DNA of 53,899 nt, counting the filler, from Stramenopiles sp. TOSAG23-6 (Eukaryota): NCBI GenBank assembly GCA_900128565.1. It is 3 parts of 3 records of this genome, joined end to end, with 100 filler letters (N's around TTAATTAATTAA, not from the genome) between each part and the next. Parts side by side here need not be neighbours in the genome. Positions count along the whole stretch, not along the records: positions 36,060 to 53,899 come from LT636072.1; 2 more parts are not named here. One strand, written 5' to 3'. Shown in pieces: positions 1 to 44,298 of this stretch (positions are counted from its first letter, which is position 1; each line of letters starts with the position of its first letter). Both the position numbers and the translations under genes were made by a program. The notes under the pieces are model-generated. The model made no database searches. It saw nothing but the letters and a program-made list of their open reading frames with translations, and was not told the DNA's origin.

Positions 1-1
1 A

Positions 2-189: not shown

Positions 190-226
<37 letters not shown>

Positions 227-8886: not shown

Positions 8887-8948
8887 ATGGATTGTAAAAT
8901 ATATTATTAGAAAAAAATTGATGTTTTCGTTAGGTACACATTTTTGTA

Positions 8949-8986
<38 letters not shown>

Positions 8987-16188: not shown

Positions 16189-16378
16189 TGAGACAAAAAA
16201 AAATTTTAAAAATAAATCTTTTTAAACGTTTTTTGTTTCCAATTCAAATGGGGTACCCGGTACCTTCAATTCCAGCCGTTTTGAGCCGTTTCATTTTCCA
16301 AAAAGAAAAGATATACTGTACTATAATATTGAGGTATTATATAATATTGTACATTGCATTTCTGTATTTTTTCTAGAA

Positions 16379-17225: not shown

Positions 17226-17396
17226 GAAAATTAAGAAAATAGTTGTATCGTATAGTATGATAGATGTTTATAATTGGGAGTTATTATACGTTTTGAAATA
17301 TTTCTAAATTTATAAAAATGAAATAATAAAAAAAAATTTTATTTTTTTTTTGTACGAAAAGAAATTATCAACAATATTTTTTTTTTGGACTACCAA

Positions 17397-17747
17397 TTAA
17401 GGCATCCAATTATGATGTTGTTGTTGTTGTTGTTGTTGCTGTGGTGGTTGTTGCCATTGTTGCTGGTGAGAATTTAATTCAGGTCGTACTTGCCATTGCT
17501 GCTGTTGTTGTTGTTGTTGTTGATAATGCATTCGATTTTGAACTTGTGGTTGTTGCTGCCAATGTGAAGTTTGTTGTTGAATGGCTGACACTCTAGGTAC
17601 CCTTTCTTGAGAAGTGCGCTGCTCCGCAAATAAATCTCTTGATGAAGGATTGTATGAAAGTGGTGCACTTGGAGCAGTGGGTGCAGTAGCTACAGGTAAT
17701 GGCATTGACTGTGACTGCACATCTGTGTATGAATGTCTTTTTTCATC

Positions 17748-17784
<37 letters not shown>

Positions 17785-17972
17785 GGTGGTGGTGGAGAAG
17801 CATTCATTGAATTTCTATACATTGAATTTCGCATTGATCCAGGATCATTGTATTGATGTTGTTGTTGTTGTTGCATTAAAGATGGATTATTATAGTGATT
17901 ATTATATTGTTGTTTTGGTGGTTCATTATATTGTGGTGGTTCATTATATTGTTGTTGTGGTGGATTATTATA
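17397..17972 (-). CDS. Mirror copy of Gln-rich fragment
   Basis: Reverse complement of 2-577. Confidence 0.6.
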
Positions 17973-17973
17973 T

Positions 17974-18073
17974 NNNNNNNNNNNNNNNNNNNNNNNNNNN
18001 NNNNNNNNNNNNNNNNNTTAATTAATTAANNNNNNNNNNNNNNNNNNNNNNNNNNNNNNNNNNNNNNNNNNNN
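17974..18073. other. Artificial contig-joining spacer (N44-TTAATTAATTAA-N44)
   Basis: Exactly 100 nt; central 12-mer has stops in all six frames. Confidence 0.97.
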
Positions 18074-18623
18074 TTTTTAGTGTAAAAAGACGTCAAACAA
18101 AAACAAACAAAAACAAATGGATGAAATAATTATTTTTTATTATACTCTCAATTGAAATTGAAATAAATAAATATGAATTTCATACTATCTATTATTTAAA
18201 ATGAATTGATTTCTATTTTATAAACATTTTAATACTTTTAAGTTATAACAGTGAAGCAAAAAAATTCTCAACTTGAAATTTATATATATTATAAATATTT
18301 CATAAGAAATCACAGAGTCTCCATTTTTTTATATCACCACTTAGCACTTGAATCATTCTGATGACTGACATCGACATCATGATTCATGTGAATCGAATCG
18401 GTCAAATTGGTCAATATCCGCATTGCGCAATCGCAATCGCGAATAGTTTCAGCGGTTTCAGTGGTGATACACGTGATACACAAGTATTAATAGCTATTAG
18501 CTACTGTATACTAACACACAAGAAACAGCTTGATCCCAAGAAAGACATTGGAATATGGCGATAATCATTGTATACCATTGTAGTTATAAAGTAGTTTGAA
18601 GGCTATAAATTTTTGAGCTAGAA

Positions 18624-20393: not shown

Positions 20394-20402
20394 ATAAAAC
20401 CT

Positions 20403-20469
20403 TAAATCTATAGTGTCAAGTAATACTTATACTTTTAAATCTATAGTGTCAAGTAATACTTATACTTTT
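20403..20469. repeat. 33-bp tandem duplication in 3' intergenic region
   Basis: TAAATCTATAGTGTCAAGTAATACTTATACTTT x2. Confidence 0.85.
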
Positions 20470-20619
20470 GGATGCATCAATAGAAAGAAACATTATGAAA
20501 TTCATGCTTATTTTTCATTTTCCAACATTATTATATTAATACACAACATTTCAATTCAAATATTGAACACTTATGTAAAATATAATTAATATTTCAAAGT
20601 AATAATATTTAATTTGTTT

Positions 20620-23439: not shown

Positions 23440-23865
23440 TGAACTGATTTCTTTTCTACTCTTGTTTTTAAAGGAAATTTGTGTCTTTCGAAGGGTGTCT
23501 ATAATTTTTGTTCACAAGAAAATTACAACAAAGATTAGATTTAGATCGGATATGTTGTTTATTTTGGAAAAAAAAAGCAAAATGAAACGTCTTTTTTTTC
23601 CTTTTCCCCGGAGATTTCGTGTTTTTGGAATTCATGAAACGTCATCCGTTATTTGATTTGTTTAGCTGATAAAAATTAATAACAATAAAGATAATAAAAA
23701 TTAGATTGATAGAATCTATTTCAAAACCAGAGGATTCTTTTTACACCAAAATCCTAATAGTTTGCAATTTGCAAATATATAATATAATCCAAAGTATAAT
23801 AGTTCAATAGCGCATTCATTGATAGACACAGAAATAATTTAGAATCTATCAAGAGACTAAGAAAA

Positions 23866-25938
23866 ATGCCTATGAATACTAAAACTCAAGGAGAAAGAAT
23901 AGAAAAGAAAAATTTTCTTCCACAGAAACGCATAGTTGTGATGGAACGTTCCTTCAAAGTAAATGTTAGCTCTGGTTTAAGTGATTCTATACATGAAGTT
24001 TCTAAAACAGAAAAAACAAAATTAGCAATTAAAGCTGCCCTAGCCAAACACTTTTTGTTTTGTCTATTGAATGAAGTGGCAATAGAGTCCATTATAGAAG
24101 TGCTGCAGCGAACGGTGATTGAACCAGGAACTCTGCTCACAAAACAAGGTGATAATGCAGATACATTCTATGTACTTGAGCGAGGGGAAGTATCAGTTGT
24201 AGGAAAAGGCAAACGATCTGTGAAGAAACAAGTGAAAGGCCCTGGAACATTTGGTGATAATGCTTTGTTTTATGAGTGTAAAAGCGTCAATACAGTCAAG
24301 TGTACTAAACAAGGTGTTTTATGGTCAATTTCGCGTACTTTATTACGTCAAGTCATAGCTTTATCTGCGGCCCAAGGCATTATTGGTCGCGTTGAATTTT
24401 TGAGGAATGTACCTTTACTTGGAGGACTTAATCAATTTCAATTGACGCGATTAGCTGAAGCATTCACTGAAGTTGGTTATGACAACAATGAAGACATTAT
24501 TGTGCAAGGCACAAAAGGATCCAAATTTTATGTTCTTACCAGTGGCGAAGTTACAGTGAGAAAGAGAAATCGCCCAGGTGCAGAATACGTTAAATTAGTA
24601 GATCTTCCAGAAGGAGCTTTTTTTGGAGAGCGATCTCTATTAGAAAATCAACCAAGAAATGCTACATGTACAAGCAAAGGTAAATCTGTTTGTCTAGTAC
24701 TTGATAGGACACAATTTAATAAATTATTAGGACCTCTAAAAAATATCATTGCAAAAACGACACAACAGAGAGAAAATGATACTTCAAATAAAATGGCAGT
24801 TGCTGAAGCAACTGGAGCCGCATTAAGAAGAAGTGAAGAAGATGAACAAAATAAACAAGATGAAAAGAGTGAAGCGAAGTCATCAAAAATGAATTTAGAA
24901 AAACAAAACAAAATAATAGTACCACACTTCAAACCAAATGACTTTAGTATAATCAAAGTAATTGGTGAAGGTGAATTGAGCTATACGACATTAGTTCGTC
25001 AGAAGCAATCAAACAAAGTTATGGTCGTAAAATCTTTCCAAAAATCAGAAGTTGCTTCAAAAAAACAATTTCCAAANATAATGCGTGAAAAAACANTTTT
25101 ATCAAAGATTGAAAGTCCATTTGTTGTTAGATTACTTGGTATAGGAGTCGATAAATATGCGCTTTATTTATACTTAGACTTTGTTCAATATGGTAACTTA
25201 TATGATTTATTATACAGTACCGTTCTACAAGACAGAGGACACGGAAATCAAAAAAACAATAATTTAATTCCAAGAACGAATTTAATGGGATTTCCAAATA
25301 ACTACGTACGTTGGTATATAGTTAATATTATATGCGCTTTACAAGCGGTTCATAAATTAGGATATATATATAGACACATTATACCGGAAAATTTTCTTCT
25401 TGATAATTTTGGTTACTTACGAATGACAAATTTTGTTTTTTGTCGTCGGCTTTCAGATGGTGAGAAATCTCAAACTTTATGCGGTTCAATTGAATACTTG
25501 GCACCTGAAATGTTGCTCAGTAAAGGACACGATTCGGCTGTTGACTTTTGGGCACTTGGTTGTCTCATGTACGAATTATTTGTCGGGAAAACACCATTCT
25601 TCGATACGAATCCATCAAATATATGTAAAAAAATTCTTCATTCCTCTGTGTCTGTCAATTTTCATCCGTCATTTCCAAAAAAGCCAAGAGATATCATTAA
25701 ACAGTTATTGCACCCAGTACCAAGTTTACGTATTGGTATGTCAAATAGAAGTTTAATTGAACACTATTGGTTTACAGGTGTAAATTGGGAAGGTATACAA
25801 GAGAGAAAATACCAAGCACCATTCTCACCAACACTACTAGAAAGTGAGAGTGATTGTAGTTACTTTCCAAAGATCGATCGAAAAGAAAATAATATTTTAT
25901 TTACAGGCAATGACAAAGTTTTTTCTAAATTTATTTAA
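23866..25938 (+). CDS. PKG/PKA-like protein: two cNMP-binding domains plus a degenerate AGC kinase domain (probable pseudokinase)
   Basis: FFGERSLLENQPRNATC cNMP cassette; TLCGSIEYLAPE and VDFWALG retained; catalytic loop YRHIIPEN and NFV in place of DFG. Confidence 0.85.
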   Translation: MPMNTKTQGERIEKKNFLPQKRIVVMERSFKVNVSSGLSDSIHEVSKTEKTKLAIKAALAKHFLFCLLNEVAIESIIEVLQRTVIEPGTLLTKQGDNADTFYVLERGEVSVVGKGKRSVKKQVKGPGTFGDNALFYECKSVNTVKCTKQGVLWSISRTLLRQVIALSAAQGIIGRVEFLRNVPLLGGLNQFQLTRLAEAFTEVGYDNNEDIIVQGTKGSKFYVLTSGEVTVRKRNRPGAEYVKLVDLPEGAFFGERSLLENQPRNATCTSKGKSVCLVLDRTQFNKLLGPLKNIIAKTTQQRENDTSNKMAVAEATGAALRRSEEDEQNKQDEKSEAKSSKMNLEKQNKIIVPHFKPNDFSIIKVIGEGELSYTTLVRQKQSNKVMVVKSFQKSEVASKKQFPXIMREKTXLSKIESPFVVRLLGIGVDKYALYLYLDFVQYGNLYDLLYSTVLQDRGHGNQKNNNLIPRTNLMGFPNNYVRWYIVNIICALQAVHKLGYIYRHIIPENFLLDNFGYLRMTNFVFCRRLSDGEKSQTLCGSIEYLAPEMLLSKGHDSAVDFWALGCLMYELFVGKTPFFDTNPSNICKKILHSSVSVNFHPSFPKKPRDIIKQLLHPVPSLRIGMSNRSLIEHYWFTGVNWEGIQERKYQAPFSPTLLESESDCSYFPKIDRKENNILFTGNDKVFSKFI

Positions 25939-25984
25939 CAAAATAAATATTATAAATAAATACATGTAGTTGGTACATATTTTT

Positions 25985-26197
25985 TCATTCTTTTGCCACA
26001 AAATGATGTTTAACATCATCAAGACGACTTGTTTCTAGGAATGCATACAACTGTTTACTTTCTAATTTTAACTGTTTTGATAAATGTTCATACTTCCGAA
26101 TCCACTTTCGTTGTCGGGACTTTTGCTCTTTGGCAGTAACAGCAGATTGGCGTGCGATAGCACGCTCTCCTGCACGGAGATCATGACTATATACCAT
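25985..26197 (-). CDS. Small hypothetical protein (70 aa); 3' end at the palindrome junction
   Basis: ATG-initiated ORF with charged helical composition; no recognised domain. Confidence 0.35.
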   Translation of the reverse strand: MVYSHDLRAGERAIARQSAVTAKEQKSRQRKWIRKYEHLSKQLKLESKQLYAFLETSRLDDVKHHFVAKE

Positions 26198-28026: not shown

Positions 28027-28094
28027 TTCTGTGGTTTCAAAAGAATGAAAAAATATGTACCAACTACATGTATTTATTTATAATATTTATTTTG

Positions 28095-30167
28095 TTAAAT
28101 AAATTTAGAAAAAACTTTGTCATTGCCTGTAAATAAAATATTATTTTCTTTTCGATCGATCTTTGGAAAGTAACTACAATCACTCTCACTTTCTAGTAGT
28201 GTTGGTGAGAATGGTGCTTGGTATTTTCTCTCTTGTATACCTTCCCAATTTACACCTGTAAACCAATAGTGTTCAATTAAACTTCTATTTGACATACCAA
28301 TACGTAAACTTGGTACTGGGTGCAATAACTGTTTAATGATATCTCTTGGCTTTTTTGGAAATGACGGATGAAAATTGACAGACACAGAGGAATGAAGAAT
28401 TTTTTTACATATATTTGATGGATTCGTATCGAAGAATGGTGTTTTCCCGACAAATAATTCGTACATGAGACAACCAAGTGCCCAAAAGTCAACAGCCGAA
28501 TCGTGTCCTTTACTGAGCAACATTTCAGGTGCCAAGTATTCAATTGAACCGCATAAAGTTTGAGATTTCTCACCATCTGAAAGCCGACGACAAAAAACAA
28601 AATTTGTCATTCGTAAGTAACCAAAATTATCAAGAAGAAAATTTTCCGGTATAATGTGTCTATATATATATCCTAATTTATGAACCGCTTGTAAAGCGCA
28701 TATAATATTAACTATATACCAACGTACGTAGTTATTTGGAAATCCCATTAAATTCGTTCTTGGAATTAAATTATTGTTTTTTTGATTTCCGTGTCCTCTG
28801 TCTTGTAGAACGGTACTGTATAATAAATCATATAAGTTACCATATTGAACAAAGTCTAAGTATAAATAAAGCGCATATTTATCGACTCCTATACCAAGTA
28901 ATCTAACAACAAATGGACTTTCAATCTTTGATAAAANTGTTTTTTCACGCATTATNTTTGGAAATTGTTTTTTTGAAGCAACTTCTGATTTTTGGAAAGA
29001 TTTTACGACCATAACTTTGTTTGATTGCTTCTGACGAACTAATGTCGTATAGCTCAATTCACCTTCACCAATTACTTTGATTATACTAAAGTCATTTGGT
29101 TTGAAGTGTGGTACTATTATTTTGTTTTGTTTTTCTAAATTCATTTTTGATGACTTCGCTTCACTCTTTTCATCTTGTTTATTTTGTTCATCTTCTTCAC
29201 TTCTTCTTAATGCGGCTCCAGTTGCTTCAGCAACTGCCATTTTATTTGAAGTATCATTTTCTCTCTGTTGTGTCGTTTTTGCAATGATATTTTTTAGAGG
29301 TCCTAATAATTTATTAAATTGTGTCCTATCAAGTACTAGACAAACAGATTTACCTTTGCTTGTACATGTAGCATTTCTTGGTTGATTTTCTAATAGAGAT
29401 CGCTCTCCAAAAAAAGCTCCTTCTGGAAGATCTACTAATTTAACGTATTCTGCACCTGGGCGATTTCTCTTTCTCACTGTAACTTCGCCACTGGTAAGAA
29501 CATAAAATTTGGATCCTTTTGTGCCTTGCACAATAATGTCTTCATTGTTGTCATAACCAACTTCAGTGAATGCTTCAGCTAATCGCGTCAATTGAAATTG
29601 ATTAAGTCCTCCAAGTAAAGGTACATTCCTCAAAAATTCAACGCGACCAATAATGCCTTGGGCCGCAGATAAAGCTATGACTTGACGTAATAAAGTACGC
29701 GAAATTGACCATAAAACACCTTGTTTAGTACACTTGACTGTATTGACGCTTTTACACTCATAAAACAAAGCATTATCACCAAATGTTCCAGGGCCTTTCA
29801 CTTGTTTCTTCACAGATCGTTTGCCTTTTCCTACAACTGATACTTCCCCTCGCTCAAGTACATAGAATGTATCTGCATTATCACCTTGTTTTGTGAGCAG
29901 AGTTCCTGGTTCAATCACCGTTCGCTGCAGCACTTCTATAATGGACTCTATTGCCACTTCATTCAATAGACAAAACAAAAAGTGTTTGGCTAGGGCAGCT
30001 TTAATTGCTAATTTTGTTTTTTCTGTTTTAGAAACTTCATGTATAGAATCACTTAAACCAGAGCTAACATTTACTTTGAAGGAACGTTCCATCACAACTA
30101 TGCGTTTCTGTGGAAGAAAATTTTTCTTTTCTATTCTTTCTCCTTGAGTTTTAGTATTCATAGGCAT
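28095..30167 (-). CDS. Mirror copy of cNMP pseudokinase
   Basis: Reverse complement of 23866-25938. Confidence 0.85.
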   Translation of the reverse strand: MPMNTKTQGERIEKKNFLPQKRIVVMERSFKVNVSSGLSDSIHEVSKTEKTKLAIKAALAKHFLFCLLNEVAIESIIEVLQRTVIEPGTLLTKQGDNADTFYVLERGEVSVVGKGKRSVKKQVKGPGTFGDNALFYECKSVNTVKCTKQGVLWSISRTLLRQVIALSAAQGIIGRVEFLRNVPLLGGLNQFQLTRLAEAFTEVGYDNNEDIIVQGTKGSKFYVLTSGEVTVRKRNRPGAEYVKLVDLPEGAFFGERSLLENQPRNATCTSKGKSVCLVLDRTQFNKLLGPLKNIIAKTTQQRENDTSNKMAVAEATGAALRRSEEDEQNKQDEKSEAKSSKMNLEKQNKIIVPHFKPNDFSIIKVIGEGELSYTTLVRQKQSNKVMVVKSFQKSEVASKKQFPXIMREKTXLSKIESPFVVRLLGIGVDKYALYLYLDFVQYGNLYDLLYSTVLQDRGHGNQKNNNLIPRTNLMGFPNNYVRWYIVNIICALQAVHKLGYIYRHIIPENFLLDNFGYLRMTNFVFCRRLSDGEKSQTLCGSIEYLAPEMLLSKGHDSAVDFWALGCLMYELFVGKTPFFDTNPSNICKKILHSSVSVNFHPSFPKKPRDIIKQLLHPVPSLRIGMSNRSLIEHYWFTGVNWEGIQERKYQAPFSPTLLESESDCSYFPKIDRKENNILFTGNDKVFSKFI

Positions 30168-30593
30168 TTTTCTTAGTCTCTTGATAGATTCTAAATTATT
30201 TCTGTGTCTATCAATGAATGCGCTATTGAACTATTATACTTTGGATTATATTATATATTTGCAAATTGCAAACTATTAGGATTTTGGTGTAAAAAGAATC
30301 CTCTGGTTTTGAAATAGATTCTATCAATCTAATTTTTATTATCTTTATTGTTATTAATTTTTATCAGCTAAACAAATCAAATAACGGATGACGTTTCATG
30401 AATTCCAAAAACACGAAATCTCCGGGGAAAAGGAAAAAAAAGACGTTTCATTTTGCTTTTTTTTTCCAAAATAAACAACATATCCGATCTAAATCTAATC
30501 TTTGTTGTAATTTTCTTGTGAACAAAAATTATAGACACCCTTCGAAAGACACAAATTTCCTTTAAAAACAAGAGTAGAAAAGAAATCAGTTCA

Positions 30594-33413
30594 ATGAGTG
30601 TCGAGTTATTTGTCGATGATGATTTCCCTCCAAGCGAGAGATCGATTGGCAAAGATGCGTTTGGCGAAGATGAAGACGGTGAACCTATAACACATGATAT
30701 AATATGGCTGCGACCCCACGAATTTGGTAAACCTGGTGAGATAACTGAGGATCCTTGCTTGTTTTTCCAGGGAACTGAGGCTGGAGACGTTATTCAAGGT
30801 GAACTAGGGGATTGTTATTTGTTGGGTTCGCTCTCTGTTGTTGCAATGCACCCTCAAGACATTATTGAACATTTATTTCTCGATGACGTTGACGTGTTTG
30901 AAGATACAGGGAAATGTACAATGCGATTCTATAAGAATGGCTCTTGGATATCTGTCATTATTGATACATTAATACCATGTAGCGTAACTACTCGATTGCC
31001 TATTTTTGCGCGAAATAAAGCACCAAATGAGCTATGGGTTGTTTTTTTGGAAAAAGCCTACGCAAAGCTACACGGTTCTTACGCAGCTTTAAATTCTGGT
31101 TCAGTTGCTGAAGCTTTAGTCGATCTATCAGGAGGTGTATCTCAAAAATTGCTTTTTACTGATCCTGCGACAATGGAAAATGCAAAAAATGGTGTTTTAT
31201 GGAAAAAAATGCTTCAGTATGTTGAACAAAATTATTTGCTCTGCACAAGTTATAACATAGCTGGTGCAGAGGTGGAAGAAGAAACTGAGGAATCTGAAGG
31301 TATTTTAGTAAATCATGCATACTCAATACTCTATGCAACTGAAGTGAAAGGTAAAAAATTTATTAAAATACGTAATCCTTGGGGTAAAGGTGAGTGGAAT
31401 GGTGAATGGAGTGACAAATCGAAAGATTGGGAAAAAAATCCTGAAATTGTTGAAGCATTGAAAAATGATGAAAATGCAGATTTCACACTAGAAGAGGACG
31501 GTACATTTTGGATGTTATGGAAAGATTATATTTCTATATATAACAAATTATATATTTGTCGAATCTTTGGGAAGGAGTATAATCAATATCTCGTCCATGG
31601 GAAATGGGAAGGTAAATCAGCTGCTGGTGCTCATATGGAGATTACAAATAGAGGGGAAGGAGAACCAGCACATTTACAGAGTAAATCACCCAAAGCATCA
31701 GATAAACCTAAAATGGGTGGTAAAGTATTTAATAAAACAAAGCGTAAGCCTGTGGGTGTTATTGCTCCTGCTACAAAGGGTAGATGTAAAGGTGGAGCAG
31801 GTTTATCATCTGACCAAGAAAAGAGGGCGGAAGAACATGTTGGTTGGCATCACCGAATGAATGGTGATCCTCAATGGTTTAATAATCCACAATATCGTCT
31901 TACTGTGAGTGATCGAGGTGTGTTTGATATTTTTATAAGTTTATCTCAACATGATCGAAGATTAGGTAGAAAAAAAAGAAAGGAATCAAAACAAAGTGAT
32001 AACCAACATAATGAAAATAATGGAAATCAACAAAATCATGAAAAAAGTGAATTTGGTGACATTTTGGCTGATAATATTTCCATTGACTTTACAGTCATCC
32101 GAAAACCTAAATCATGGTCAACAAGAGTATGGGAAGAAGACGTTGACGACATTGTCACAAAAGCAAGTAGTTCAAATTTTGCATCAAATTTTCCACAGCG
32201 CGAAGTTTCAAAAGGTTCAATTAAGGTAGATAATCGATATGCATACTTTATCATTCCGCATACAAATACTACAGGAATATGCTCAGAATATGTTTTACGA
32301 TTATTTACAAAATCTACAATTAAATTACAACCTATACTGGAGACATATACTCAAATATTTCGTTCTACATGGCAGCAAGGAGGAATGGTGGATACATCAG
32401 GTGGCCCTCTACTTACAAAAGAAGGTCGAAGTAATCGAACTTGGTGTCAAAACCCACAATATGCATTGTTTTTACCCTCATCAAGAAAGGAGGATTCTAC
32501 CACAGTAAAAGTTGTACTTAAAAGACTTGGACCTACAAAATTAAAAAAAGAAACTTTGGGGTTAGTTGTAGTGAAACCAACTGTTGATTTACCAAGCACT
32601 CGACGGAAACGTTTAAAACCTCCCAAAAAGGCTGTTCTTTTATCAACGGGACGTTTACCTCCAACACAGCCAAGTAACTTATCGATGGCACAGTTGCAAG
32701 ACAATTCAAACTCCACTGGAAATTTGCAAATTGATCGAAAATTACAAATTCAACCAGAAGAATGGGCCATTATTTCATATTTTAGTAATGTTGAGAATTC
32801 CTGTACTTTGTTGCGAGAATTATCCACACGATTTTGTGAACGAGGATTAATTGTCTCGCCAATGATGGATGCAGAAGTAGATGGAGATTTTCAATTGGAG
32901 TTTCACAGTGATTTGCCCATTAATGTACGTAAATTGGAAGAATCTAACATGCAAACCATTGGATCCTCATGGACTGAAAATACCGCTGGTGGTTGTCATA
33001 TTAATCCATCTCAGTGGAGAAAAAATCCAAAGTTTGTGCTACAGTTACATGGTGATGCAGGAGAAAAAGTTGATGTCAATATAAATTTATGTAGACCTGA
33101 AAATACGTGGGCGCGATTAACGAAAAGAGATCCGGTAAGCTGCATGATTGGTTTCTACATTTTACCGACTACGAGAAATGCTGTCGATAAAAATCTTGGT
33201 ATAAAATACTCAGAAGATGAAACATTTCAAACTAATTTTGTTCCAATGAGCCAAGTTGCTACACCACTTGGGTTTACAATGGAAATACTTGACCCAGATC
33301 AGTGTTATATTATTGTACCATGCTGCTATGGAACCGGTTGGGTTGGCGATTTTAGTTTATCAGTAGCTGCAGAGTGTGAGTTTTCATTTATGAAGTGGAA
33401 AAGTACTAGATAA
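30594..33413 (+). CDS. Mirror copy of calpain
   Basis: Reverse complement of 20620-23439. Confidence 0.9.
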   Translation: MSVELFVDDDFPPSERSIGKDAFGEDEDGEPITHDIIWLRPHEFGKPGEITEDPCLFFQGTEAGDVIQGELGDCYLLGSLSVVAMHPQDIIEHLFLDDVDVFEDTGKCTMRFYKNGSWISVIIDTLIPCSVTTRLPIFARNKAPNELWVVFLEKAYAKLHGSYAALNSGSVAEALVDLSGGVSQKLLFTDPATMENAKNGVLWKKMLQYVEQNYLLCTSYNIAGAEVEEETEESEGILVNHAYSILYATEVKGKKFIKIRNPWGKGEWNGEWSDKSKDWEKNPEIVEALKNDENADFTLEEDGTFWMLWKDYISIYNKLYICRIFGKEYNQYLVHGKWEGKSAAGAHMEITNRGEGEPAHLQSKSPKASDKPKMGGKVFNKTKRKPVGVIAPATKGRCKGGAGLSSDQEKRAEEHVGWHHRMNGDPQWFNNPQYRLTVSDRGVFDIFISLSQHDRRLGRKKRKESKQSDNQHNENNGNQQNHEKSEFGDILADNISIDFTVIRKPKSWSTRVWEEDVDDIVTKASSSNFASNFPQREVSKGSIKVDNRYAYFIIPHTNTTGICSEYVLRLFTKSTIKLQPILETYTQIFRSTWQQGGMVDTSGGPLLTKEGRSNRTWCQNPQYALFLPSSRKEDSTTVKVVLKRLGPTKLKKETLGLVVVKPTVDLPSTRRKRLKPPKKAVLLSTGRLPPTQPSNLSMAQLQDNSNSTGNLQIDRKLQIQPEEWAIISYFSNVENSCTLLRELSTRFCERGLIVSPMMDAEVDGDFQLEFHSDLPINVRKLEESNMQTIGSSWTENTAGGCHINPSQWRKNPKFVLQLHGDAGEKVDVNINLCRPENTWARLTKRDPVSCMIGFYILPTTRNAVDKNLGIKYSEDETFQTNFVPMSQVATPLGFTMEILDPDQCYIIVPCCYGTGWVGDFSLSVAAECEFSFMKWKSTR

Positions 33414-33639
33414 AAACAAATTAAATATTATTACTTTGAAATATTAATTATATTTTACATAAGTGTTCAATATTTGAATTGAAATGTTGTGTATTAATAT
33501 AATAATGTTGGAAAATGAAAAATAAGCATGAATTTCATAATGTTTCTTTCTATTGATGCATCCAAAAGTATAAGTATTACTTGACACTATAGATTTAAAA
33601 GTATAAGTATTACTTGACACTATAGATTTAAGGTTTTAT

Positions 33640-35409
33640 TTATAATTTCATCATTTCTTTCCAATGAGGACTTAAGTATTGTGGATTCATAGTATTCAAA
33701 AAATGTTTTTGCCAGCGTTGATTGAAATGTTCCAATGCTACATGTATTTTTTTGTGATCTAATTTGGCTTTTGAGATTATTTTGTCGATTACAATTTTTT
33801 CATGTGGAATATAATCTTCATTGATTACTCGAGAATCTAACTGAGATGCGGCTAATAGCTCATCACGACTAACCACGTCACTAGATTTCCTATCAGAAGT
33901 CAACACACCATTATCAAAATAGCTACGAATAATTTGCTTTAATTCAACAATCCGTTGTTCAGGTAATTTATGACTACATTTGAGCAGAGCATTTGCAGCA
34001 CATCGAATCTTTTTTATATTGACATCGACGACTACACGTGAATTTCCATTAGAGTATTTAATACCAAGATCCCTGGCAATAGTCCTCTTCATTCTTTCAT
34101 CTGCTTTTTGACACTTCTCCTGACAAGTTACACACAAAAGTACTATACCATGAGAATCGTGACTCTTCATTTCATGAGGAAAATATTTCCTGTAACTATG
34201 AGGTATTACATAGTGACGTACGTAATTTTTATTGTTACCACAAGTAACACAGCAATTATTTTTTACTGCAGTGAAAAAAGGTGTATTTGCATCTCTACGA
34301 CCTTTGGGTTCAAAAGTGAGGCGGATTACAGTAGCAAGTTTTTTACCATCGTATCCATCTACTTCATTCTCTACAGTAGCCAATCCTCTTTTCATATACC
34401 ACTTCACTTTATCATGGTTAATCATTGCTATCAATTGTCCATCTGGTGCCAACATCCGCACATTATCATATAGTGGAGTGTTGCGTTTAGCAAATGCAGT
34501 ATATCTTTTCCTTCGTTTTCGTTTCAATAATAAACGCTTTTCATTATTATAAATGTTGTTTTGACATTTATGGCTCTTAGATTTGTCATTACGAAGACCA
34601 TCAATTGAAAATGGCTTATCTACTATTGGAATGACAAAGTTTCTGATATTTTCATTTATGTCAACATTTTTCTTTTTGTATGAAATGATAGATAATAATA
34701 AAGTACGAGAAACTATCGCATCTTTGGCTGCATAAATGCTCTGAGACATTGTCAAAGGCCAGTCTTCCCAGTTACTACAACGTAAGGCATTGGCTTTTGA
34801 TATTTCTATCCCAAGTAAGTGACGAGATAAATTGCGAAGACTTAAAGAAAAATTCTGATCTGGACAACAACCCTGACGTACCGCAAGTAATCGTAAGTCA
34901 ACGCAACCAACCACAGAAGTATAGCCCAAGGAAACATGCCTCATGAGTCTTTTTGCATCTTGGAGTACCGCAACACCTGATTTGATGAATTTATTGCTTG
35001 ATAAAATATAGGCCAAAGCTGGAGAGGGAACCGAAAAGTGTGAAATACAAAGTACAAACACATGTGTCTTTGTCGACAACTGAACGACAGCAGGTGGATT
35101 CTTTGGCTTCCCTTTCAAGTTAGGTTTCCACTCGACGTCAAATCCCAACAAAACCCACTCAGCTAAATCAGCTAAAGGCATCACATAACGCATCAAAGCT
35201 GCATCGCAAACGGCAGCTTTATTAATGACGAAACATTTGAGTGACTTACAAGTTGGTGAAAGTGACACCATCATTTTTTTCTGCGTCTTTTGACAGAGCT
35301 GCGCTTGCCGCTTGGAAATTCTTTGCCGACGACCTTGAAACCATGATATAAATAAACACGCTGACAGGACCAGTATCTCTTTAATCTGAGAACTTTGAAG
35401 TGTATTCAT
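33640..35409 (-). CDS. EXD2: Mirror copy of EXD2-like exonuclease
   Basis: Reverse complement of 18624-20393. Confidence 0.9.
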   Translation of the reverse strand: MNTLQSSQIKEILVLSACLFISWFQGRRQRISKRQAQLCQKTQKKMMVSLSPTCKSLKCFVINKAAVCDAALMRYVMPLADLAEWVLLGFDVEWKPNLKGKPKNPPAVVQLSTKTHVFVLCISHFSVPSPALAYILSSNKFIKSGVAVLQDAKRLMRHVSLGYTSVVGCVDLRLLAVRQGCCPDQNFSLSLRNLSRHLLGIEISKANALRCSNWEDWPLTMSQSIYAAKDAIVSRTLLLSIISYKKKNVDINENIRNFVIPIVDKPFSIDGLRNDKSKSHKCQNNIYNNEKRLLLKRKRRKRYTAFAKRNTPLYDNVRMLAPDGQLIAMINHDKVKWYMKRGLATVENEVDGYDGKKLATVIRLTFEPKGRRDANTPFFTAVKNNCCVTCGNNKNYVRHYVIPHSYRKYFPHEMKSHDSHGIVLLCVTCQEKCQKADERMKRTIARDLGIKYSNGNSRVVVDVNIKKIRCAANALLKCSHKLPEQRIVELKQIIRSYFDNGVLTSDRKSSDVVSRDELLAASQLDSRVINEDYIPHEKIVIDKIISKAKLDHKKIHVALEHFNQRWQKHFLNTMNPQYLSPHWKEMMKL

Positions 35410-35959
35410 TTCTAGCTCAAAAATTTATAGCCTTCAAACTACTTTATAACTACAATGGTATACAATGATTATCGCCATATTCCAATGTCTTTCTTGGGAT
35501 CAAGCTGTTTCTTGTGTGTTAGTATACAGTAGCTAATAGCTATTAATACTTGTGTATCACGTGTATCACCACTGAAACCGCTGAAACTATTCGCGATTGC
35601 GATTGCGCAATGCGGATATTGACCAATTTGACCGATTCGATTCACATGAATCATGATGTCGATGTCAGTCATCAGAATGATTCAAGTGCTAAGTGGTGAT
35701 ATAAAAAAATGGAGACTCTGTGATTTCTTATGAAATATTTATAATATATATAAATTTCAAGTTGAGAATTTTTTTGCTTCACTGTTATAACTTAAAAGTA
35801 TTAAAATGTTTATAAAATAGAAATCAATTCATTTTAAATAATAGATAGTATGAAATTCATATTTATTTATTTCAATTTCAATTGAGAGTATAATAAAAAA
35901 TAATTATTTCATCCATTTGTTTTTGTTTGTTTTTGTTTGACGTCTTTTTACACTAAAAA

Positions 35960-36059
35960 NNNNNNNNNNNNNNNNNNNNNNNNNNNNNNNNNNNNNNNNN
36001 NNNTTAATTAATTAANNNNNNNNNNNNNNNNNNNNNNNNNNNNNNNNNNNNNNNNNNNN
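35960..36059. other. Artificial contig-joining spacer
   Basis: N44-TTAATTAATTAA-N44. Confidence 0.97.
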
Positions 36060-36122
36060 TACGAAATTTTGTACCTAACAAATTTTAGTTTTTTTTTTTT
36101 GAAATATTTTTCCACAATATAT
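36060..36122 (+). other. 3' part of a non-canonical family intron at contig start (ends AT)
   Basis: TACGAAATTTTGTACCTAAC...GAAATATTTTTCCACAATATAT|GTA TTA TTT. Confidence 0.75.
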
Positions 36123-38422: not shown

Positions 38423-39611
38423 ATGCGACGTCGACTTTTGAAAGAGGCAGCGGCTTTATCAGAGCCAACGTATGGGTGTCCATCTCTTCATTTTGGATCA
38501 ATGACTTTTGGTTGGGCACAAGCCTCTTCAAAAGTAGATGATGCAGTAGCTTCAGAAATGTTAGAGCATTTCTCAAAAGCAGGACTTGGCACACATTTTG
38601 ATACAGCTCGCATTTATGCGTCAGGAGAATCAGAAACAATGGCAGGAAGGATTAGACCTAGTGGTCTGTTGGGTGAACAATTTAGAGTGGTAACAAAAGC
38701 ACATCCAAGTCAAAAAGATGGTTTATCAAAGAAAGGGTTGTGTTTTCAACTTGAGAAATCAATGGACGCTCTACAACTAAAGCATATTCCTGTACTTTAT
38801 CTACATCAACCAGATCCTGAAAATCCATTAGAAGAAACATTAGAAGCATTAGAAAGCTTAATTGAAGATGGTGTAATCGGTACTGTAGGTTTAAGTAATT
38901 ATTCTGCTGCAGAGGTAGAAAGGGCAGTTGAATTATGCAATTCACATGGTTGGTATAATGCTTTACCAACTGTCTATCAAGGATTATATTCACCTTTGAA
39001 TAGACGCGTCGAAACTGAATTATTACCAACACTCCGTGCGTATGATGTATCATTCGTTGCATATAACCCATTGGCAGGGGGAATGCTTTCTGGTAAATAT
39101 TTAAAACAGGAAAATGATCAAAACAATGTCCCAAATGTATTTTTTTCATGTACCATGTTTCGATTTTGTTTTAGTACGAAATTTTGTACCTAACAGATTT
39201 TTTTTCAAAAACAAATATTTTCTTACAATACATGGACGTTTCAAAGATAATCCAAATTATTTAGATCGATTTTATAAAAAAGATGTTTTCGCTGCAGTAC
39301 AATTATTACAAGAATCATGCAATAATCAAAACGATGAATTAAGTCTTACACAAGCGTCTTTTTCTTGGATGATGAATCATTCAATGCTTGGTAAAAATGA
39401 TGGCATTTTAATTGGAGCATCAAAAATTGAGCATCTAATTTCAAATTTGAATTGTTGTGAAGCAGCACAACCACTGTCACCTGTAGTTTTGGATGCATTT
39501 GATAAGGCATGGGAAATAACAAAGGAAGATTCATTTCTATATTTTCGTGGTTATTCAAAAGATATGCCACCAGAATTAAGAAACGGAGACGGTGCTACTT
39601 ATCAGGTTTAA
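38423..39611 (+). CDS. Aldo-keto reductase, AKR7A/aflatoxin aldehyde reductase-like, ~363 aa (exons 38423-39136, 39234-39611)
   Basis: FDTARIY, VTKAHP, LYLHQPD, GLSNY, PTVYQGLY, AYNPLAGG, ILIGASK; junction NNVPN-GRFKDNPNYLDRF. Confidence 0.9.
39137..39233 (+). other. Non-canonical family intron, GT...AT, 97 nt
   Basis: CCAAAT|GTATTTTTTT...GTACGAAATTTTGTACCTAAC...AAATATTTTCTTACAATACAT|GGACGT; phase 0. Confidence 0.88.
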
Positions 39612-39780
39612 TTAAATAAATTTATTTTCAATGCATGTAATCATCGTTGTTTATTCTTATTTTATAATTGTATTGTTTATGAAAAATATAAAAATAATTT
39701 ATACACATTTTTTTATTTTTAAGTTCATTTACTCTCAAGACATTTTTAGAAACAATAAAGAAAAAAGACAAAATTTTGTC

Positions 39781-41763
39781 TCACCGGTTTGGACCAACAA
39801 CACTACGAAGAACTTCCGTCGGGCTTTCTTCTATTAAAACGTTCATTGCTTCATCATTAGCTACCACAAGATATCCTGCAAAACCTAAACTATTCGTACC
39901 AATTTTTATATTTTGCTTCTCACAAAATCCTGAAATACGTGGAGCTACAAGCATCCAACGTTTTGTGAAAACTAAGCTGTAGCTCGGGCAACTTAGATCA
40001 CTTGTTCGATCATGGATTATGAAAAAATATTTCAAAAAAAATCGTTAGGTACAAAATTTCGTACGAAAAAAAAATTCAAAATTGAAATGAAAACGTACAA
40101 TTCCTTCATTTGTTGATTGTAAAGTATTTATATACGTATCTTGATTCATTGCATTACTTTTAAACAAAAGCTTTTTATAGTATTTCATTAACATAGCAAC
40201 TGTTGGGAAGCCATTGAATAATACACATGCATGTATTGTGAAAAAATATGTAATTCAAAATGGGTCAAAAAAAATCATTAGGTATGAAATTTCGTATGAA
40301 AAAAAAATAAATTTGAAATTCATGGTGAAAACATACATGCGGAAAGTTAAAACTATCAATCTTAAAAGGAATGCCTTTTTTATATTCATACTTTTTTGCT
40401 GTATTGAACATGCTGAATTCGATTGGAATCTCAATAGGACCGTTCCCACTTACATGAATATTTGTTTTTTCAGATAAAGAACTATACATTGTGAAAAAAT
40501 ATTTTTTTTTTTCGTAAAAAAAAATTGTTAGGTATAAAATGTACTATAAACCAAAAAATTACTATAAAAAAAATCATGATGAAAACATACTTCTCTAAGA
40601 ACCTTTTTCAAAATTCTAATTGGTACAGCTTGCATATGTTTATGTTTTTGAGATGCACCTGACGCAGGGCCTCCATTGAAGTATACCATGTATTGTGTGA
40701 AAAAACACGAAATCACAAAAAATATCGTTAGGTACAAAATTTCGTACGAAAAAAAAATTGAGTTGAAAAAAAAAAAAAAAGATACATGGCATTAACATCT
40801 CGTAATAAAATATGAGCTGCACTAAAGTCGTTTTGATCAAGTAAACTGGACTGCGGTGAAAAATTGCGAGTGACTAAAAGTAGATGCTCATCAAAGTATT
40901 TTGAAAAAATATGTTTATATTTGAAATTCGTTAGTTTATATTTTATGATTTTTTTTTTAAAGTAAAAAGAATAAATTTGAAAAGTTGAAAAAAAAAAACG
41001 GTTTTGTTTTCGTACGAAAAAAAATAAATTAAAAATTAAATTGGACAAAGTACAAGGCAGGAAATTTGTTTAAGAGTAAAACATGAGAACAATTTGGACC
41101 AAATTCTGGATCGATCACTAACCCTGGATCAGGGTCAGCAAATGGATCAAATGATTTTGTAGTTTTTTTTGTAGTTTTTTTTACACCTATTGTTCTGGAT
41201 TTTCTGTAGGCATTGAGAACAACAGAATTTATTTGAGATACAATAAACGAATTGCCTTTTTCATCTACGACTGAAATCGGAGAATGATGAAATTTTGATA
41301 TAGCTCTTGTCCGCTTTGCTCTGATATAACATTCTTTTATACTATTAAGTAGTTTTGTATTGCAATTTCTAACGTTATTATGATACCAGGCAATCATGGC
41401 AATTGCTGAACTTGAAAATAAAATGGTTGAATATCTGCGAGGAATTTTGAATATCGCAACAACAGATAACACAAAAAAAGAGAACAAACCAGTAGATGGC
41501 CATATTTCAACAATGGGTGATGATGACTCTGTTGTAAAATCAGGCGTACCAAAGACGGCTACAACCTTTTGTTTTATGGCAGCTTGTAAAATATCATCTG
41601 AACTATAAAGCTGTTTACCCTCCGAGACAAGACGAGTTCTTTCTCGAGACAACCGAAACCGATCACAGAGCTGCAACCAAGGGTCCGTATTACCATCAAT
41701 AGGAACTTTGCATTCTAGCCCTTTGAAACGTGCACATAATAGAATAGGTTCCAATATTTGCAT
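39781..41763 (-). CDS. Ap4A phosphorylase / ATP adenylyltransferase (Apa1/2-like) with N-terminal extension, ~474 aa (exons 41763-41054, 40893-40786, 40687-40591, 40483-40337, 40230-40099, 40011-39781)
   Basis: Spliced product contains FDPFADPD, LLLNKFPAFDEHLLLVTRNF.PQ..LL...DF, YFNGGPASGASQKHKHMQ (HxHxQ), SYSLVFTKRWMLVAPR, NSLGFAGYLVV; total 1425 nt. Confidence 0.9.
40012..40098 (-). other. Non-canonical family intron, GT...AT, 87 nt
   Basis: GGAATT|GTACGTTTTC...CGTACGAAATTTTGTACCTAAC...TATTTTTTCATAATCCAT|GATCGA; phase 0. Confidence 0.85.
40231..40336 (-). other. Non-canonical family intron, GT...AT, 106 nt
   Basis: CCGCAT|GTATGTTTTC...CATACGAAATTTCATACCTAAT...TATTTTTTCACAATACAT|GCATGT; phase 0. 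Confidence 0.85.
40484..40590 (-). other. Non-canonical family intron, GT...AT, 107 nt
   Basis: AGAGAA|GTATGTTTTC...TATACCTAAC...AATATTTTTTCACAATGTAT|AGTTCT; phase 0. Confidence 0.83.
40688..40785 (-). other. Non-canonical family intron, GT...AT, 98 nt
   Basis: GCCAT|GTATCTTTT...CGTACGAAATTTTGTACCTAAC...CACACAATACAT|GGTATAC; phase 2; yields NAM-VYFNGG. Confidence 0.88.
40894..41053 (-). other. Non-canonical family intron, GT...TT, 160 nt
   Basis: GCCTT|GTACTTTG...CGTACGAAA...AACTAAC...ATATTTTTTCAAAATACTT|TGATGAG; phase 2; yields NKFPAFDEH. Confidence 0.88.
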
Positions 41764-42048
41764 GATTAGAAAGACTATAATATGTAAAGCAGTAGTTGTA
41801 CTACGTGTTTGTTGTACACTTCGTGAGTCGTGACTCGAGAAATGTCAAAATATTAGGGTTGTTCCGGTTCGGGTTGGTCAAAAATCGACACGTCATCAAA
41901 AGTTTCAACAAAACATCACGATCAAACAAACGTCAAACACAATGTCATGTGAACTTGTCATCAAACCAAAAAAAGGAAAGATTGAATATAAGTTTCTTGG
42001 TTGGTTTAATTCAGATAAACTACAGAAATCTTTTTGTAGATTAAACAG

Positions 42049-43173
42049 ATGCTATTTTTCAAAGATTGGAAAATATTTGTGTTACTGCTAGTGATATCAC
42101 AGAAAACTCTATATGTGATATCCAAAGTTGACTGCCCTGAGTTAACGTTTTTCGAAGAGTATAAATCAGGATTAGATCAAGATAACCCCAATAGCCGACA
42201 GGTTGCTGTAGTAATGTTAGACGACCGTTCAATACTTCCCGTGGAAGGTAAATCAAAGTATAGTTTCTGGCAATATGCAATAGCTGTAAATCATGCGTAC
42301 ACTTCGGCGCATGGTTACTATTTTACACTTTTTCGACCACCAAATTCTTCTCAGTGTTCTGAGTCACATGATATCGAGGGAACTGTAGGTGCCAAACCTG
42401 TAACAGTTTCTACTCACTGGAATAAAGCGGCTGCACTTTTAACTGTAATGAGAAATTCCCAACTTAAATGCAATGATATTATTTTATATATTGACTCTGA
42501 TGCTGTTGTGAAGCGACAAGATATTGTACGTTTTATATGAATTTCTAATTTAATTTTTTTTCATACGAAATTTCGTACCTAACATTTTTTGTTGAAATAT
42601 TTTTTCACAATACTTACACCACTGGATTTTTTGCGAAAAGAGCGTAAAAATAATAGTGAACTAGCCAAAGAGTATCCTTGGAATGCGTCTAATATCGACA
42701 ATGCTTCAATTGTGGTAGCTGCAGGAGATAATGGAGATATGGGCGTGTGGATGCCATGGGGGTTCTCTGTTCAATGGGCTAATACAGGGGTGATGCTGCT
42801 ACGTAAATCTCGAGCCACAGAATTACTTCTTGAAGCTTGGCGAGATAGTACCTTTCGGGATGATATGACTTTTTATAGACAAAGATGGCCTTTTGATCAA
42901 GAAGCTTTTAATAGACTAATTTATCCTCCAAATAGAAACATGATTGCATTATTACCTATGGTTTCAATGAATAGTCCAAAAGGTCATTGGATTTCACATA
43001 TTTGGGGAGGTGAACGTGAAAAACGAGAAACTTATCTTAGACAGGCTGCAGAATCGCTTGGTCTGACTGACGATAAACTAAGAAGTACATTAGAAAATAT
43101 TAGTATTCAGCACTCAGAAGTTTTACCGCAGTGGATACCAAACACTCAAGGAAATATATGTAAAAGTAAATAG
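42049..43173 (+). CDS. Glycosyltransferase, GT34/GMA12-MNN10-like, ~344 aa (exons 42049-42525, 42616-43173)
   Basis: Signal peptide; motifs YTSAHGY, HWNK, LYIDSDA (DxD), NTGVMLLR, WPFDQEAF, ISHIWG; junction RQDI-TPLDFL. Confidence 0.82.
42526..42615 (+). other. Non-canonical family intron, GT...TT, 90 nt
   Basis: GATATT|GTACGTTTTA...CATACGAAATTTCGTACCTAAC...GAAATATTTTTTCACAATACTT|ACACCA; phase 0. Confidence 0.87.
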
Positions 43174-43260: not shown

Positions 43261-44298
43261 TTACATCAGCACTAAATAACTTTTTTGAAATTGAATTTGT
43301 TTTTTTTTTCTGNTTACNTTTTNCNTTTTCTGGTTTCTTCTCCTGGGGACCTTTGTTGTACTGCTATTTTGTTGGTTTTGTTGTTGTCGCTTTTGTTGTT
43401 GTCGCTTTTGTTGTTGTTGCTTTTGTTGTTGTTGCTTTTGTTGTTGTTGCTTTTGTTGTTGTTGCCTTTGTTGTTGTTGCTTTTGTTGTTGTTGCCTTTG
43501 TTGTTGTTGCTTTTGTCTTACTGCTAACTCTTTAAGATGCATTTGTCTTGATGCTAACTCTTTAAGAGGATTGGGGGGCTCTTTAAGATGCATTTGTCTT
43601 AATGCTAACTCTTTAAGAGGATTGGGGTGCTCTTTAAGAGGATTGGGGGTCGTTTTTTTAATCGCAGTTTTAAACATTTTGACACCGGCAGCAGTTTTTT
43701 CCGTCAAGATTTCGTTTCTGTATTGTTTTGAATCTGGCGAGAATACTGGTGAATTTTGTGTCTTTCGTTTTAATTGAGTTTCAACAGATATAGGTTGTAA
43801 GGGAATTTCATCAGATTCTTCAAAGGCAGATAGAAAATTATCGAGAAGTAAACTTTCGAAGCCTGTCAGAGGATCACGATTATCAAAGTGCTCCGTCAAG
43901 ATTTCGTTTCCGTATTGTTTTGAATCTGGCGAGAATACTGGTGAATCGTATTGTTTTGAATCTGGGGAGAATACTGGTGAATCGTATTGTTTTGAATCTG
44001 GCGAGAATACTGGTGAATTTAGTGTCTTTTGTTTTAATTGAGTCCCAACAGATATAGGTTGTAAGGGAATTTCATTAATTTCTTCAATTGCAGATAGAAG
44101 ATTATCGAGGAGTAAACTTTGGAAGCCTGTCATGTGGGGGTGACGCTTATGAAAGAGTTCTTTAAAATATGTCATTTGATAATAATAATCGGCCGTAGCT
44201 TTTTGTAATTTGATATCTTCTCTGGAGTTCAACGCTGCAAAAGACTTTTGGAATAAGCCACACATGCATAGAAACAAAAAATACCTTAGGTTTAACAT
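43261..44298 (-). CDS. Secreted repetitive protein with poly(KQQQQ) tail (3' end uncertain because of Ns)
   Basis: Signal peptide MLNLRYFLFLCMCGLFQKSFA; SPVFSPDSKQY x4; duplicated TGF(Q/E)SLLLDN...EIPLQPISV block. Confidence 0.65.
   Translation of the reverse strand: MLNLRYFLFLCMCGLFQKSFAALNSREDIKLQKATADYYYQMTYFKELFHKRHPHMTGFQSLLLDNLLSAIEEINEIPLQPISVGTQLKQKTLNSPVFSPDSKQYDSPVFSPDSKQYDSPVFSPDSKQYGNEILTEHFDNRDPLTGFESLLLDNFLSAFEESDEIPLQPISVETQLKRKTQNSPVFSPDSKQYRNEILTEKTAAGVKMFKTAIKKTTPNPLKEHPNPLKELALRQMHLKEPPNPLKELASRQMHLKELAVRQKQQQQRQQQQKQQQQRQQQQKQQQQKQQQQKQQQQKRQQQKRQQQNQQNSSTTKVPRRRNQKXXXVXRKKKQIQFQKSYLVLM
43377..43515. repeat. 15-bp unit tandem repeat (TTTTGTTGTTGTTGC)n encoding (K/R)QQQQ
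   Basis: About 9 units directly visible. Confidence 0.9.

Follow-up and report, generated by a model that had tools for sequence, protein, structure and literature searches.

A family of putative introns with AT or TT 3′ ends in an Apa2-like gene of Stramenopiles sp. TOSAG23-6

Introduction

The AG at the 3′ end of introns is among the most constant signals of eukaryotic genes, and the available parts of the literature describe large-scale exceptions for a few lineages, namely Fritillaria, Amoebophrya and the euglenozoans. In a stretch of 53,899 nucleotides from Stramenopiles sp. TOSAG23-6 (GenBank assembly GCA_900128565.1), hereafter the window, an Apa2-like gene on the minus strand (41763-39781, within the part taken from LT636072.1) is interrupted by five short inserts whose apparent 3′ borders read AT or TT. 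The question raised by this locus is whether these inserts are introns, removed from RNA at borders that lack AG, and what kind of element and machinery could account for them. An earlier note on this DNA had claimed that the gene is functional, that it is split by five copies of one family and that the non-AG acceptors are truly used. Our analysis favours, with a probability of roughly 0.8, an expressed gene with five insertions, all in the sense direction, of an introner-like element that would be spliced without an AG requirement by a U2-type spliceosome.

Results

Five related inserts divide an Apa2-like reading frame

Joining six open pieces, at the two excisions put forward in the earlier note and, in the remaining three introns, at the corresponding ends of the family, gives a frame of 1425 nt without internal stop, from an ATG at 41763-41761 to a TGA at 39783-39781, as that note had predicted. 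Five homologous AT-rich inserts, of 160, 98, 107, 106 and 87 nt (introns A to E, in the order of transcription), were indeed found within it. The HxHxQ motif, which we take to be the catalytic histidine motif of the Ap4A phosphorylase family, is intact, again in agreement with that note.

Exon 1 (41054..41763, 710 nt; minus strand, like all exons and introns of the gene) encodes an N-terminal extension with a hydrophobic stretch and, following it, the first part of the Ap4A_phos_N domain as far as the NKFP motif. Intron A (40894..41053, 160 nt, GT...TT) is a diverged copy, longer by about 60 nt of additional sequence in its interior; a branch-like ACTAAC motif lies 37 nt from its 3′ end, its last three bases, CTT, also end the upstream exon, and its excision reproduces the expected NKFP...H string. 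Exon 2 (40786..40893, 108 nt) is followed by intron B (40688..40785, 98 nt, GT...AT), with TACCTAAC at 40734-40727 and a branch-like A 40 nt from the 3′ end, the removal of which yields, as announced, a ...YFNGG...HKHMQ string, with HKHMQ at 40644-40630 in exon 3 (40591..40687, 97 nt). Intron C (40484..40590, 107 nt, GTATGT...TGTAT), its boundary predicted solely from the family rule described below and the open frame, precedes exon 4 (40337..40483, 147 nt), whose frame is validated from PIE... to ...FNFPH by motifs common to homologues. Intron D (40231..40336, 106 nt, GT...AT), where CAT ends both exon and intron, separates exon 4 from exon 5 (40099..40230, 132 nt, an open frame), and intron E (40012..40098, 87 nt, GT...AT) separates the latter from exon 6 (39781..40011, 231 nt including the TGA), which encodes the C-terminal ATP_transf domain. 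The introns contain 16-24% G+C and the exons 27-40%, in a window that is itself AT-rich (about 23-40% G+C per kilobase). Pairwise identity is 63-74% among introns B-E and 46-53% between A and the others, and the five form one family.

Introns A and E are removed from RNA at non-AG ends

A search identified two seawater metatranscriptomes from two studies, X1 (a poly(A) RNA library) and X2, in which small shares of the locus are represented, and their contigs were placed on 39700-41800. A 151-nt contig of X1 joins 40893 to 41054, skipping the 160 nt of intron A, with sides of 81 nt (40813-40893, exon 2) and 70 nt (41054-41123, exon 1) that carry two and zero mismatches, respectively. A second contig of the same library joins 40010 to 40098, skipping the 87 nt of intron E, with sides of 75 nt (39936-40010, exon 6) and 76 nt (40098-40173, exon 5) and zero and one mismatches. 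The joints can be moved by up to 3 nt in A and up to 2 nt in E. Read on the coding strand, the termini possible for intron A are GT..TT, TG..CT, TT..AC and CT..TA, never AG. For intron E the placements 40011-97, 40012-98 and 40013-99 read TA..TG, GT..AT and TG..CA, with neither AG nor AC under any of them, and it is therefore not an AT-AC intron. GT is the only start that both joints allow. Introns A and E are removed from RNA at non-AG ends.

Contigs that match exons alone, at zero mismatches, cover 39794-39941 (exon 6, X1) and 41515-41665 (exon 1, X2), and no contig among those of X1 and X2 spans junctions B, C or D. Unjoined 3′ ends of the family, attached to other exons, are also present in X1. 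Two further signals, the X2 31-mers at 40494-40524 and an X1 joint 40041/40278 with 13 extra letters, were rejected as evidence on the locus, being family repeats from other loci. Another X1 contig, of 271 nt, matches 44 nt of exon 3 (40647-40690, one mismatch) up to the three ambiguous bases of junction B; its other 227 nt do not resemble the window, and a graph chimera or a paralogue may be the source.

The claim that the non-AG acceptors are truly used is thus borne out directly by RNA for A and E, and indirectly for B, by colinearity with Pfam and the lack of any canonical solution, and for D, by the closest homologue. Support for the claim that the gene is functional comes from its uninterrupted frame, the conserved motif and the exon contigs of both studies.

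The spliced product is colinear with Ap4A phosphorylases

Pfam searches were run exon by exon. Exon 1 matches positions 8-98 of PF19327 (23.6 bits), exon 2 positions 102-135 (33.3 bits) and exon 3 positions 138-165 (35.1 bits), all above the cut-off of 23.1 bits, while exon 6 matches positions 37-93 of PF09830 (ATP_transf; 53.9 bits, cut-off 23.5). Exons 4 and 5, each searched singly, gave no Pfam match. At junction B, exon 2 stops at profile position 135 with two residues over and exon 3 begins at 138; edge residues and split codons fill profile positions 99-101 and 136-137 exactly, so that there is no indel at junctions A and B. Alignment to the Apa1/Apa2 profiles, which the earlier note had proposed as a check, therefore came out colinear across both.

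Among solved structures the sole match was yeast Apa2 (PDB 4i5t), at 17-21 bits per exon. Residues 199-235 of exon 1 align to its residues 67-103, ending at the NKFP motif; exon 3 aligns to 153-173, with HKHMQ opposite the HKHLQ of chain 4i5t_A, and exon 6 aligns to 254-308. Exons 2 and 5 found no match among solved structures. The predicted product thus shares with yeast Apa2 both Pfam domains and the NKFP and HxHxQ motifs, but it has about 130 extra N-terminal residues and the similarity is low.

A HMMER scan with exon 6 returned 55 matches at E ≤ 0.001, and the 20 full-length homologues among them, of 240-599 amino acids, were aligned with the spliced protein (the other 35 comprise 34 shorter fragments and one protein of 936 amino acids). 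This alignment of 21 rows has no gap at junctions A, B or D, the last lying at FPH/A, while junctions C and E sit in loops of variable length. Gaps at the predicted junctions, which the earlier note had named as a result that would speak against it, are hence lacking at three of the five, the two others falling where homologues vary in length. The closest homologue (P0001, a EukProt model of 433 amino acids) has 155 identities over 441 alignment columns. The N-terminal extension, of about 130 residues (41400-41763) and with a hydrophobic stretch like a membrane anchor, is common to P0001 and another homologue, P0030, and absent in most homologues. A word-indexed search for longer proteins with exon 6 found no homologue, and a protein scan of a metagenome collection with exon 1 gave 220 pattern matches, none of them a relative of the gene. 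In our best reading, the gene would encode a membrane-anchored Apa2-like Ap4A phosphorylase/ATP adenylyltransferase, the putative activity being assigned by homology.

Canonical splice sites offer few alternatives

Downstream of the family 3′ ends of introns A to E, the next AG lies at +7, +17, +2, +31 and +11 nt, respectively. None of these offsets is a multiple of three, so that with the family GT donor the frame is shifted in all five cases, as the earlier note had stated for introns A and B; the +17 AG of intron B would also delete VYFNG, and the +2 AG of intron C, out of frame, gives an immediate stop.

All GT-AG and GC-AG pairs between conserved anchors were then enumerated and those in frame and free of stops retained. 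Intron B has no such solution. Intron A has two, a trivial one (the whole segment from anchor to anchor) and 41046-40887, both of which differ from the RNA joint. Intron C has five, including 40590-40430; intron D has one (40332-40200), with a donor GTTTTC inside the family 5′ end, and intron E has three, refuted by the RNA joint. Scored against P0001 (BLOSUM), the non-AG model reaches 607 and the alternatives 599 for A, 584 for D (23 units lower), 584 for E and 622 for C.

The family recurs across the window under one border rule

A profile built from introns B-E was used to search for further copies, and 13 full copies were examined: the five in the Apa2-like gene, seven in other window genes and one in a metagenome contig (L001). 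With up to one mismatch allowed, a core 12-mer of the family is present 11 times in the window, where 0.23 occurrences would be expected, and none of 100 shuffles reached 11. The alignment of 12 copies shows three conserved blocks, TGTAYG, TTTTTTTTTC(G/A)TACGAAATTT(T/C)GTACCTAAC and ATATTTTTTCA(C)AAT. The boundary lies 4 nt past the invariant AAT in 13 of 13 copies (intron A was fitted by eye). Twelve copies start with GT and one with GA; nine end in AT, three in TT and one in AG, and the last four bases vary (ACAT, GTAT, CCAT, AAAT, GCTT, ACTT, ATAG). The AAT 4 nt upstream of the boundary is not used as 3′ end, and copy 2594-2495 has its end at a terminal AAT and not at the CAT 7 nt further upstream.

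At the level of sequence, a CTAAY box is present in all 13 copies, with TACCTAA invariant in the 12 aligned ones, together with a T tract. The distance of this branch-type box from the 3′ end is 32-47 nt, and the interval is free of AG in 12 of 13 copies, the thirteenth having an AG directly at the box. At position +5 of the 5′ site, which varies among G, C, T and A, eight of the 13 copies have G and one has C. Each of the 12 window copies has the same orientation as its gene. RNAalifold found no conserved base pair in the 12-copy alignment.

The 12 full copies of the window are spread over eight genes, and two partial copies (36059-36121 and 53898-53845) both end in AT. Under the 4-nt rule the seven copies outside the Apa2-like gene all join flanking long open reading frames (ORFs) in frame; five of these joints were computed and two, those of the reductase copy and of 51430-51341, were checked by hand. 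The former, 39137-39233 on the plus strand, interrupts the adjoining aldo-keto reductase gene in phase 0 as GT...CAT after an exon that ends in AAT, and the ORFs on its two sides match positions 2-209 and 211-290 of PF00248. Copy 51430-51341, on the minus strand, starts with GAATGT in place of GTATGT; it is 90 nt long and open, so that the frame holds whether it is kept or removed, and it therefore carries no weight. Copy 50909-50814, also on the minus strand, is the only one with an AG end (…AAAATATAG), which occupies the homologous position; it joins a 383-codon to a 125-codon frame, and the latter, on the downstream side, supports this end. The remaining copies, 2594-2495, 7545-7640, 42526-42615 and 53710-53617, lie in other window genes. 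Removal from RNA was seen for two of the 13 full copies, A and E, and the other 11 are supported by in-frame ORF joints.

When a 20-nt family core was scanned against a metagenome collection, one true copy was found, that of L001 (362-465, minus strand; CAT/GTATGT...ACAT/GG, with slashes at the borders), between open coding flanks of higher G+C content. About 100 nt downstream of it the same contig has a GTAAGT, a possible ordinary 5′ splice site, followed by degenerate telomere-like CCCTAA/TTAGGG motifs. A core match in a Bacteroidales metagenome-assembled genome (L002), devoid of any other family feature, was rejected as chance, and the same scan of viral contigs gave no match.

Exon ends and intron ends tend to repeat each other

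The exon upstream of a copy ends in AT (seven copies) or TT (four), that is, in 11 of 13 cases, against a frequency of 0.24 for both dinucleotides together in the window. Exon end and intron end are identical over 2 nt in 8 of 13 copies and over 3 nt in 5 of 13, and two of the three TT-ending introns are preceded by exons that end in TT. Compared with shuffled pairings, this agreement has P values of 0.05 (2 nt) and 0.03 (3 nt) when counted by positions, and of 0.12 and 0.05, respectively, when counted by full matches. The pattern is modestly suggestive of a 2-3-nt target-site duplication at a preferred (C)AT/G site, in which case the element itself would run from GTAYG to ...CA(C)AAT(N).

Context of the window

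The window is made of three pieces, the studied gene lying in the third, joined by linkers at 17974-18073 and 35960-36059 that consist of 44 N, TTAATTAATTAA and 44 N, a spacer with stops in six frames. Two inverted duplications are 100% identical: 1-8959 versus 9015-17973 (8959 nt, spacer of 55) and 18074-25995 versus 28038-35959 (7922 nt, spacer of 2042). They resemble fold-back chimeras of whole-genome amplification or an assembly artefact, and the window is probably part of an amplified single-cell assembly; genes within these duplications are counted twice in any list of ORFs. Single Ns are scattered, for instance around 48290 and 52050, and long CAA/CAG repeats (poly-glutamine type) and 15-nt tandem coding repeats occupy 2-577, 17397-18017 and 43339-43546. 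An Rfam search of the window gave no match. Regarding other genes, an Hsp70-like ORF is a divergent paralogue, the best match of a cGMP-kinase is metagenomic and 43% identical, and a calpain matches generic atlas clusters only.

Discussion

How the element would be spliced

We propose that a short (about 90-105 nt), AT-rich element of introner type, that is, a transposon-like intron, was inserted five times in the Apa2-like gene. Each copy would bring its own signals: a GTAYGT 5′ site, the invariant branch-type box TACCTAAC, a long T tract and the 3′ block ATATTTTTTCA(C)AAT, and excision would run from the GT to exactly 4 nt past the invariant AAT. The last two or three intron nucleotides (CAT, CTT, TAT) usually repeat the end of the upstream exon, as one copy of a target-site duplication would, and because the intron end duplicates the exon end, removal would restore the uninterrupted frame despite the AT or TT. 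The sense-only orientation, the strong GTAYGT, the invariant box of CTAAC type, the T tract and the zone free of AG together point to the spliceosome, presumably of U2 type, the second step of which would make no demand for AG. The 3′ cut, within the 32-47 nt past the branch box, may instead be placed according to where the T tract and the CA(C)AAT block lie. The choice of spliceosome, the candidate branch-point A and the likely transposon origin are all proposed from the sequence, as is the suggestion that the position of the cut may outweigh the terminal dinucleotide. A stricter version, in which the major spliceosome cuts by a ruler, at a set position beyond the T tract and CA(C)AAT block, whatever the dinucleotide (AT, TT or AG), and in which this arose independently of Fritillaria, appears to us doubtful.

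Several observations weigh against splicing of such an element by a U2-type spliceosome. RNA joints were seen for two of the five junctions, each in a single contig of read length, at a depth of 2-2.7 and in one run; the contigs carry no strand, the RNA library may contain DNA and an intron-less DNA allele is conceivable. For the U2-type sites of an intron-poor genome, a variable +5 is out of the ordinary. The inverted termini amount to just GTAT/ATAC (4 nt), and the evidence for a target-site duplication is modest. At intron C, the 161-nt GT-AG alternative 40590-40430 is in frame and scores better than the non-AG model, by 8 bits against the protein profile and by 15 units against P0001, and the profile slightly favours canonical alternatives at D (by 4 bits) and E (by 2 bits).

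Alternative explanations

These last scores bear on the possibility that the inserts are ordinary GT-AG or GC-AG introns with different exon boundaries. Such boundaries can be drawn in frame and without stops for A (one non-trivial solution), C, D and E, and copy 50909-50814 does end in AG at the homologous position. The few bits that some canonical solutions gain against the family profile are, however, explained by the shortening of variable loops: the C alternative scores higher because it deletes an 18-residue loop, and since the profile also prefers an alternative at E that the RNA refutes, it has no discriminating power in loops. None of the canonical sites coincides with the RNA joint of A or that of E, B has no canonical solution and the nearest AG shifts the frame in five of five; the alternatives at A, D and E fall below the non-AG model against P0001, and that at C would have to pass over two earlier AGs. 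We regard ordinary introns as extremely improbable, and consider it quite probable that the boundary of intron C is at 40484/40590, as predicted by the family rule and the open frame. That the open frame over six pieces is fortuitous and the gene a decaying pseudogene is scarcely credible either. An AG that lies 2 nt beyond where intron C is predicted to end, and is out of frame, could be taken that way, as could the lack of an own Pfam match in exons 4 and 5; against this stand a stop-free frame of 474 codons in a region of about 26-35% G+C, an intact catalytic-type motif, a protein colinear with 20 homologues, and a transcript that is processed.

The minor (U12-type) spliceosome accepts non-AG ends, GT-AT among them, and removal by it is plausible because GT-AT is a known class of minor introns, yet it seems unlikely. 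Compared by eye with published consensus strings rather than with a scoring matrix, GTAT(G/C)TTTT and TACCTAAC loosely resemble the RTATC(C/T)TTT and TTCCTTRAC given in the available part of the work on Physarum (10.1101/2020.10.12.336362), and the variable +5 would be compatible with it. The prevalence of G over C at +5 and the long T tract speak against it. The branch box of U12-type introns is found some 10-20 nt from the 3′ end. In the family the box lies well outside this range, and the corresponding distance for the branch motif of Physarum is 9-12 nt (10.1101/2020.10.12.336362). The inserts could also be lost, or be missing, at the level of DNA, either as eliminated sequences in the manner of ciliates or as an insertion polymorphism, the joined contigs then coming from a genome or allele that lacks them. 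In favour of this, 8 of 13 copies have direct repeats of 2-3 nt on both sides, of which one is kept after removal, contigs of an RNA library may contain DNA, and the window resembles an amplified single-cell assembly. But the 12 window copies, all in sense, carry sense-strand splice signals (GTAYGT, CTAAC, T tract) that DNA excision does not need, the library is of poly(A) RNA, the genetic code is standard, with TAA, TAG and TGA all stops, and the same run holds unjoined family 3′ ends on other exons. We consider a DNA-level explanation very improbable.

Comparison with known intron systems

Splicing of an introner-like element by a U2-type spliceosome would place the family near several published systems, to which we refer within the parts of the cited works available to us. 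Introners are transposon-derived families of spliceosomal introns in Micromonas, Aureococcus, Chrysochromulina, Symbiodinium and others (Gozashti et al. 2022, PMC9860276; PMC11282704). Like them, the family is multi-copy, short and AT-rich, lies in unrelated genes, in 8 of 13 copies between short direct repeats, leaves the length of the mRNA unchanged on removal and has at least one splice site in its copies, and the hosts are marine. In the Chrysochromulina type the element has its own 5′ site and the 3′ site is taken from the duplication (PMC9860276, PMC11282704). The splice sites expected of introners are GT, GC, GA or AT at the 5′ and AG or AC at the 3′ end (PMC12130899), whereas in the family 12 of 13 copies have an AT or TT end and the inverted termini measure just 4 nt. 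Of other introner traits, neither an autonomous partner nor presence/absence polymorphism was seen, and the metagenome scan yielded no relative of the gene in which the latter could show.

In Fritillaria, which are larvacean tunicates, AT is the commonest 3′ end, with 34% of introns in F. borealis and 44% in F. pellucida (Soo et al. 2026, PMC13326754). Introns there close with a YAY triplet, which is also frequent ahead of the 5′ site, and they have kept a T-rich tract (PMC13326754). A miniature inverted-repeat transposable element (MITE) origin has been attributed to these introns (PMC11282704). The family shares with them an end triplet of CAT or TAT (YAY) in 8 of 13 copies and an exon end in YAY in 5 of 13. 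The major classes of Fritillaria introns begin with AG, however (AG/AC and AG/AT; PMC13326754), and the family instead shows a strong GTAYGT at its start, together with an invariant branch box. As a weak indication, the host is also not animal-like, the cGMP-kinase reaching just 272 bits against human PKG and the calpain being distant. GT-AT introns of U12 type, with a proposed transposon origin and short repeats, occur in Physarum (Larue et al., bioRxiv 10.1101/2020.10.12.336362). These agree with the family in termini, in a T-rich extended 5′ motif and in the proposed origin, and differ from it in that the latter has mostly G at +5, a distant box and a T tract. Conserved splice motifs are missing from the hairpin-type introns of Amoebophrya, euglenids and diplonemids, whose ends are joined by pairing (PMC7789003, PMC12621601). 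These introns resemble the family in their non-GT-AG borders, short direct repeats across the borders and occurrence as repeated families, but the family has no RNAalifold pairs in 12 copies and does have a conserved 5′ site and branch box. Of the features of a canonical U2-type GT-AG intron, finally, it has the GT start, the branch motif and the pyrimidine tract, and lacks the 3′ AG. In the part of the literature that was searched we found no description of a GT-AT/TT introner family, and a search with the family motif returned only primers. What appears to be new here is an intron family that would combine a canonical 5′ half with an AT or TT end.

Significance

Gene finders that depend on AG would break or miss such genes, here the Apa2-like gene, the adjoining aldo-keto reductase and at least six others in 18 kb. 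The family also constitutes a further case of a mobile element apparently making introns, with a duplicated target as the last intron bases, and a clean natural test bed for the choice of splice site at the second step. If the cut is indeed set by a ruler, an introner without 3′ AG could spread through coding sequence, and the family would represent a natural system of AG-independent 3′ splice sites with an otherwise yeast-like 5′ site and branch box.

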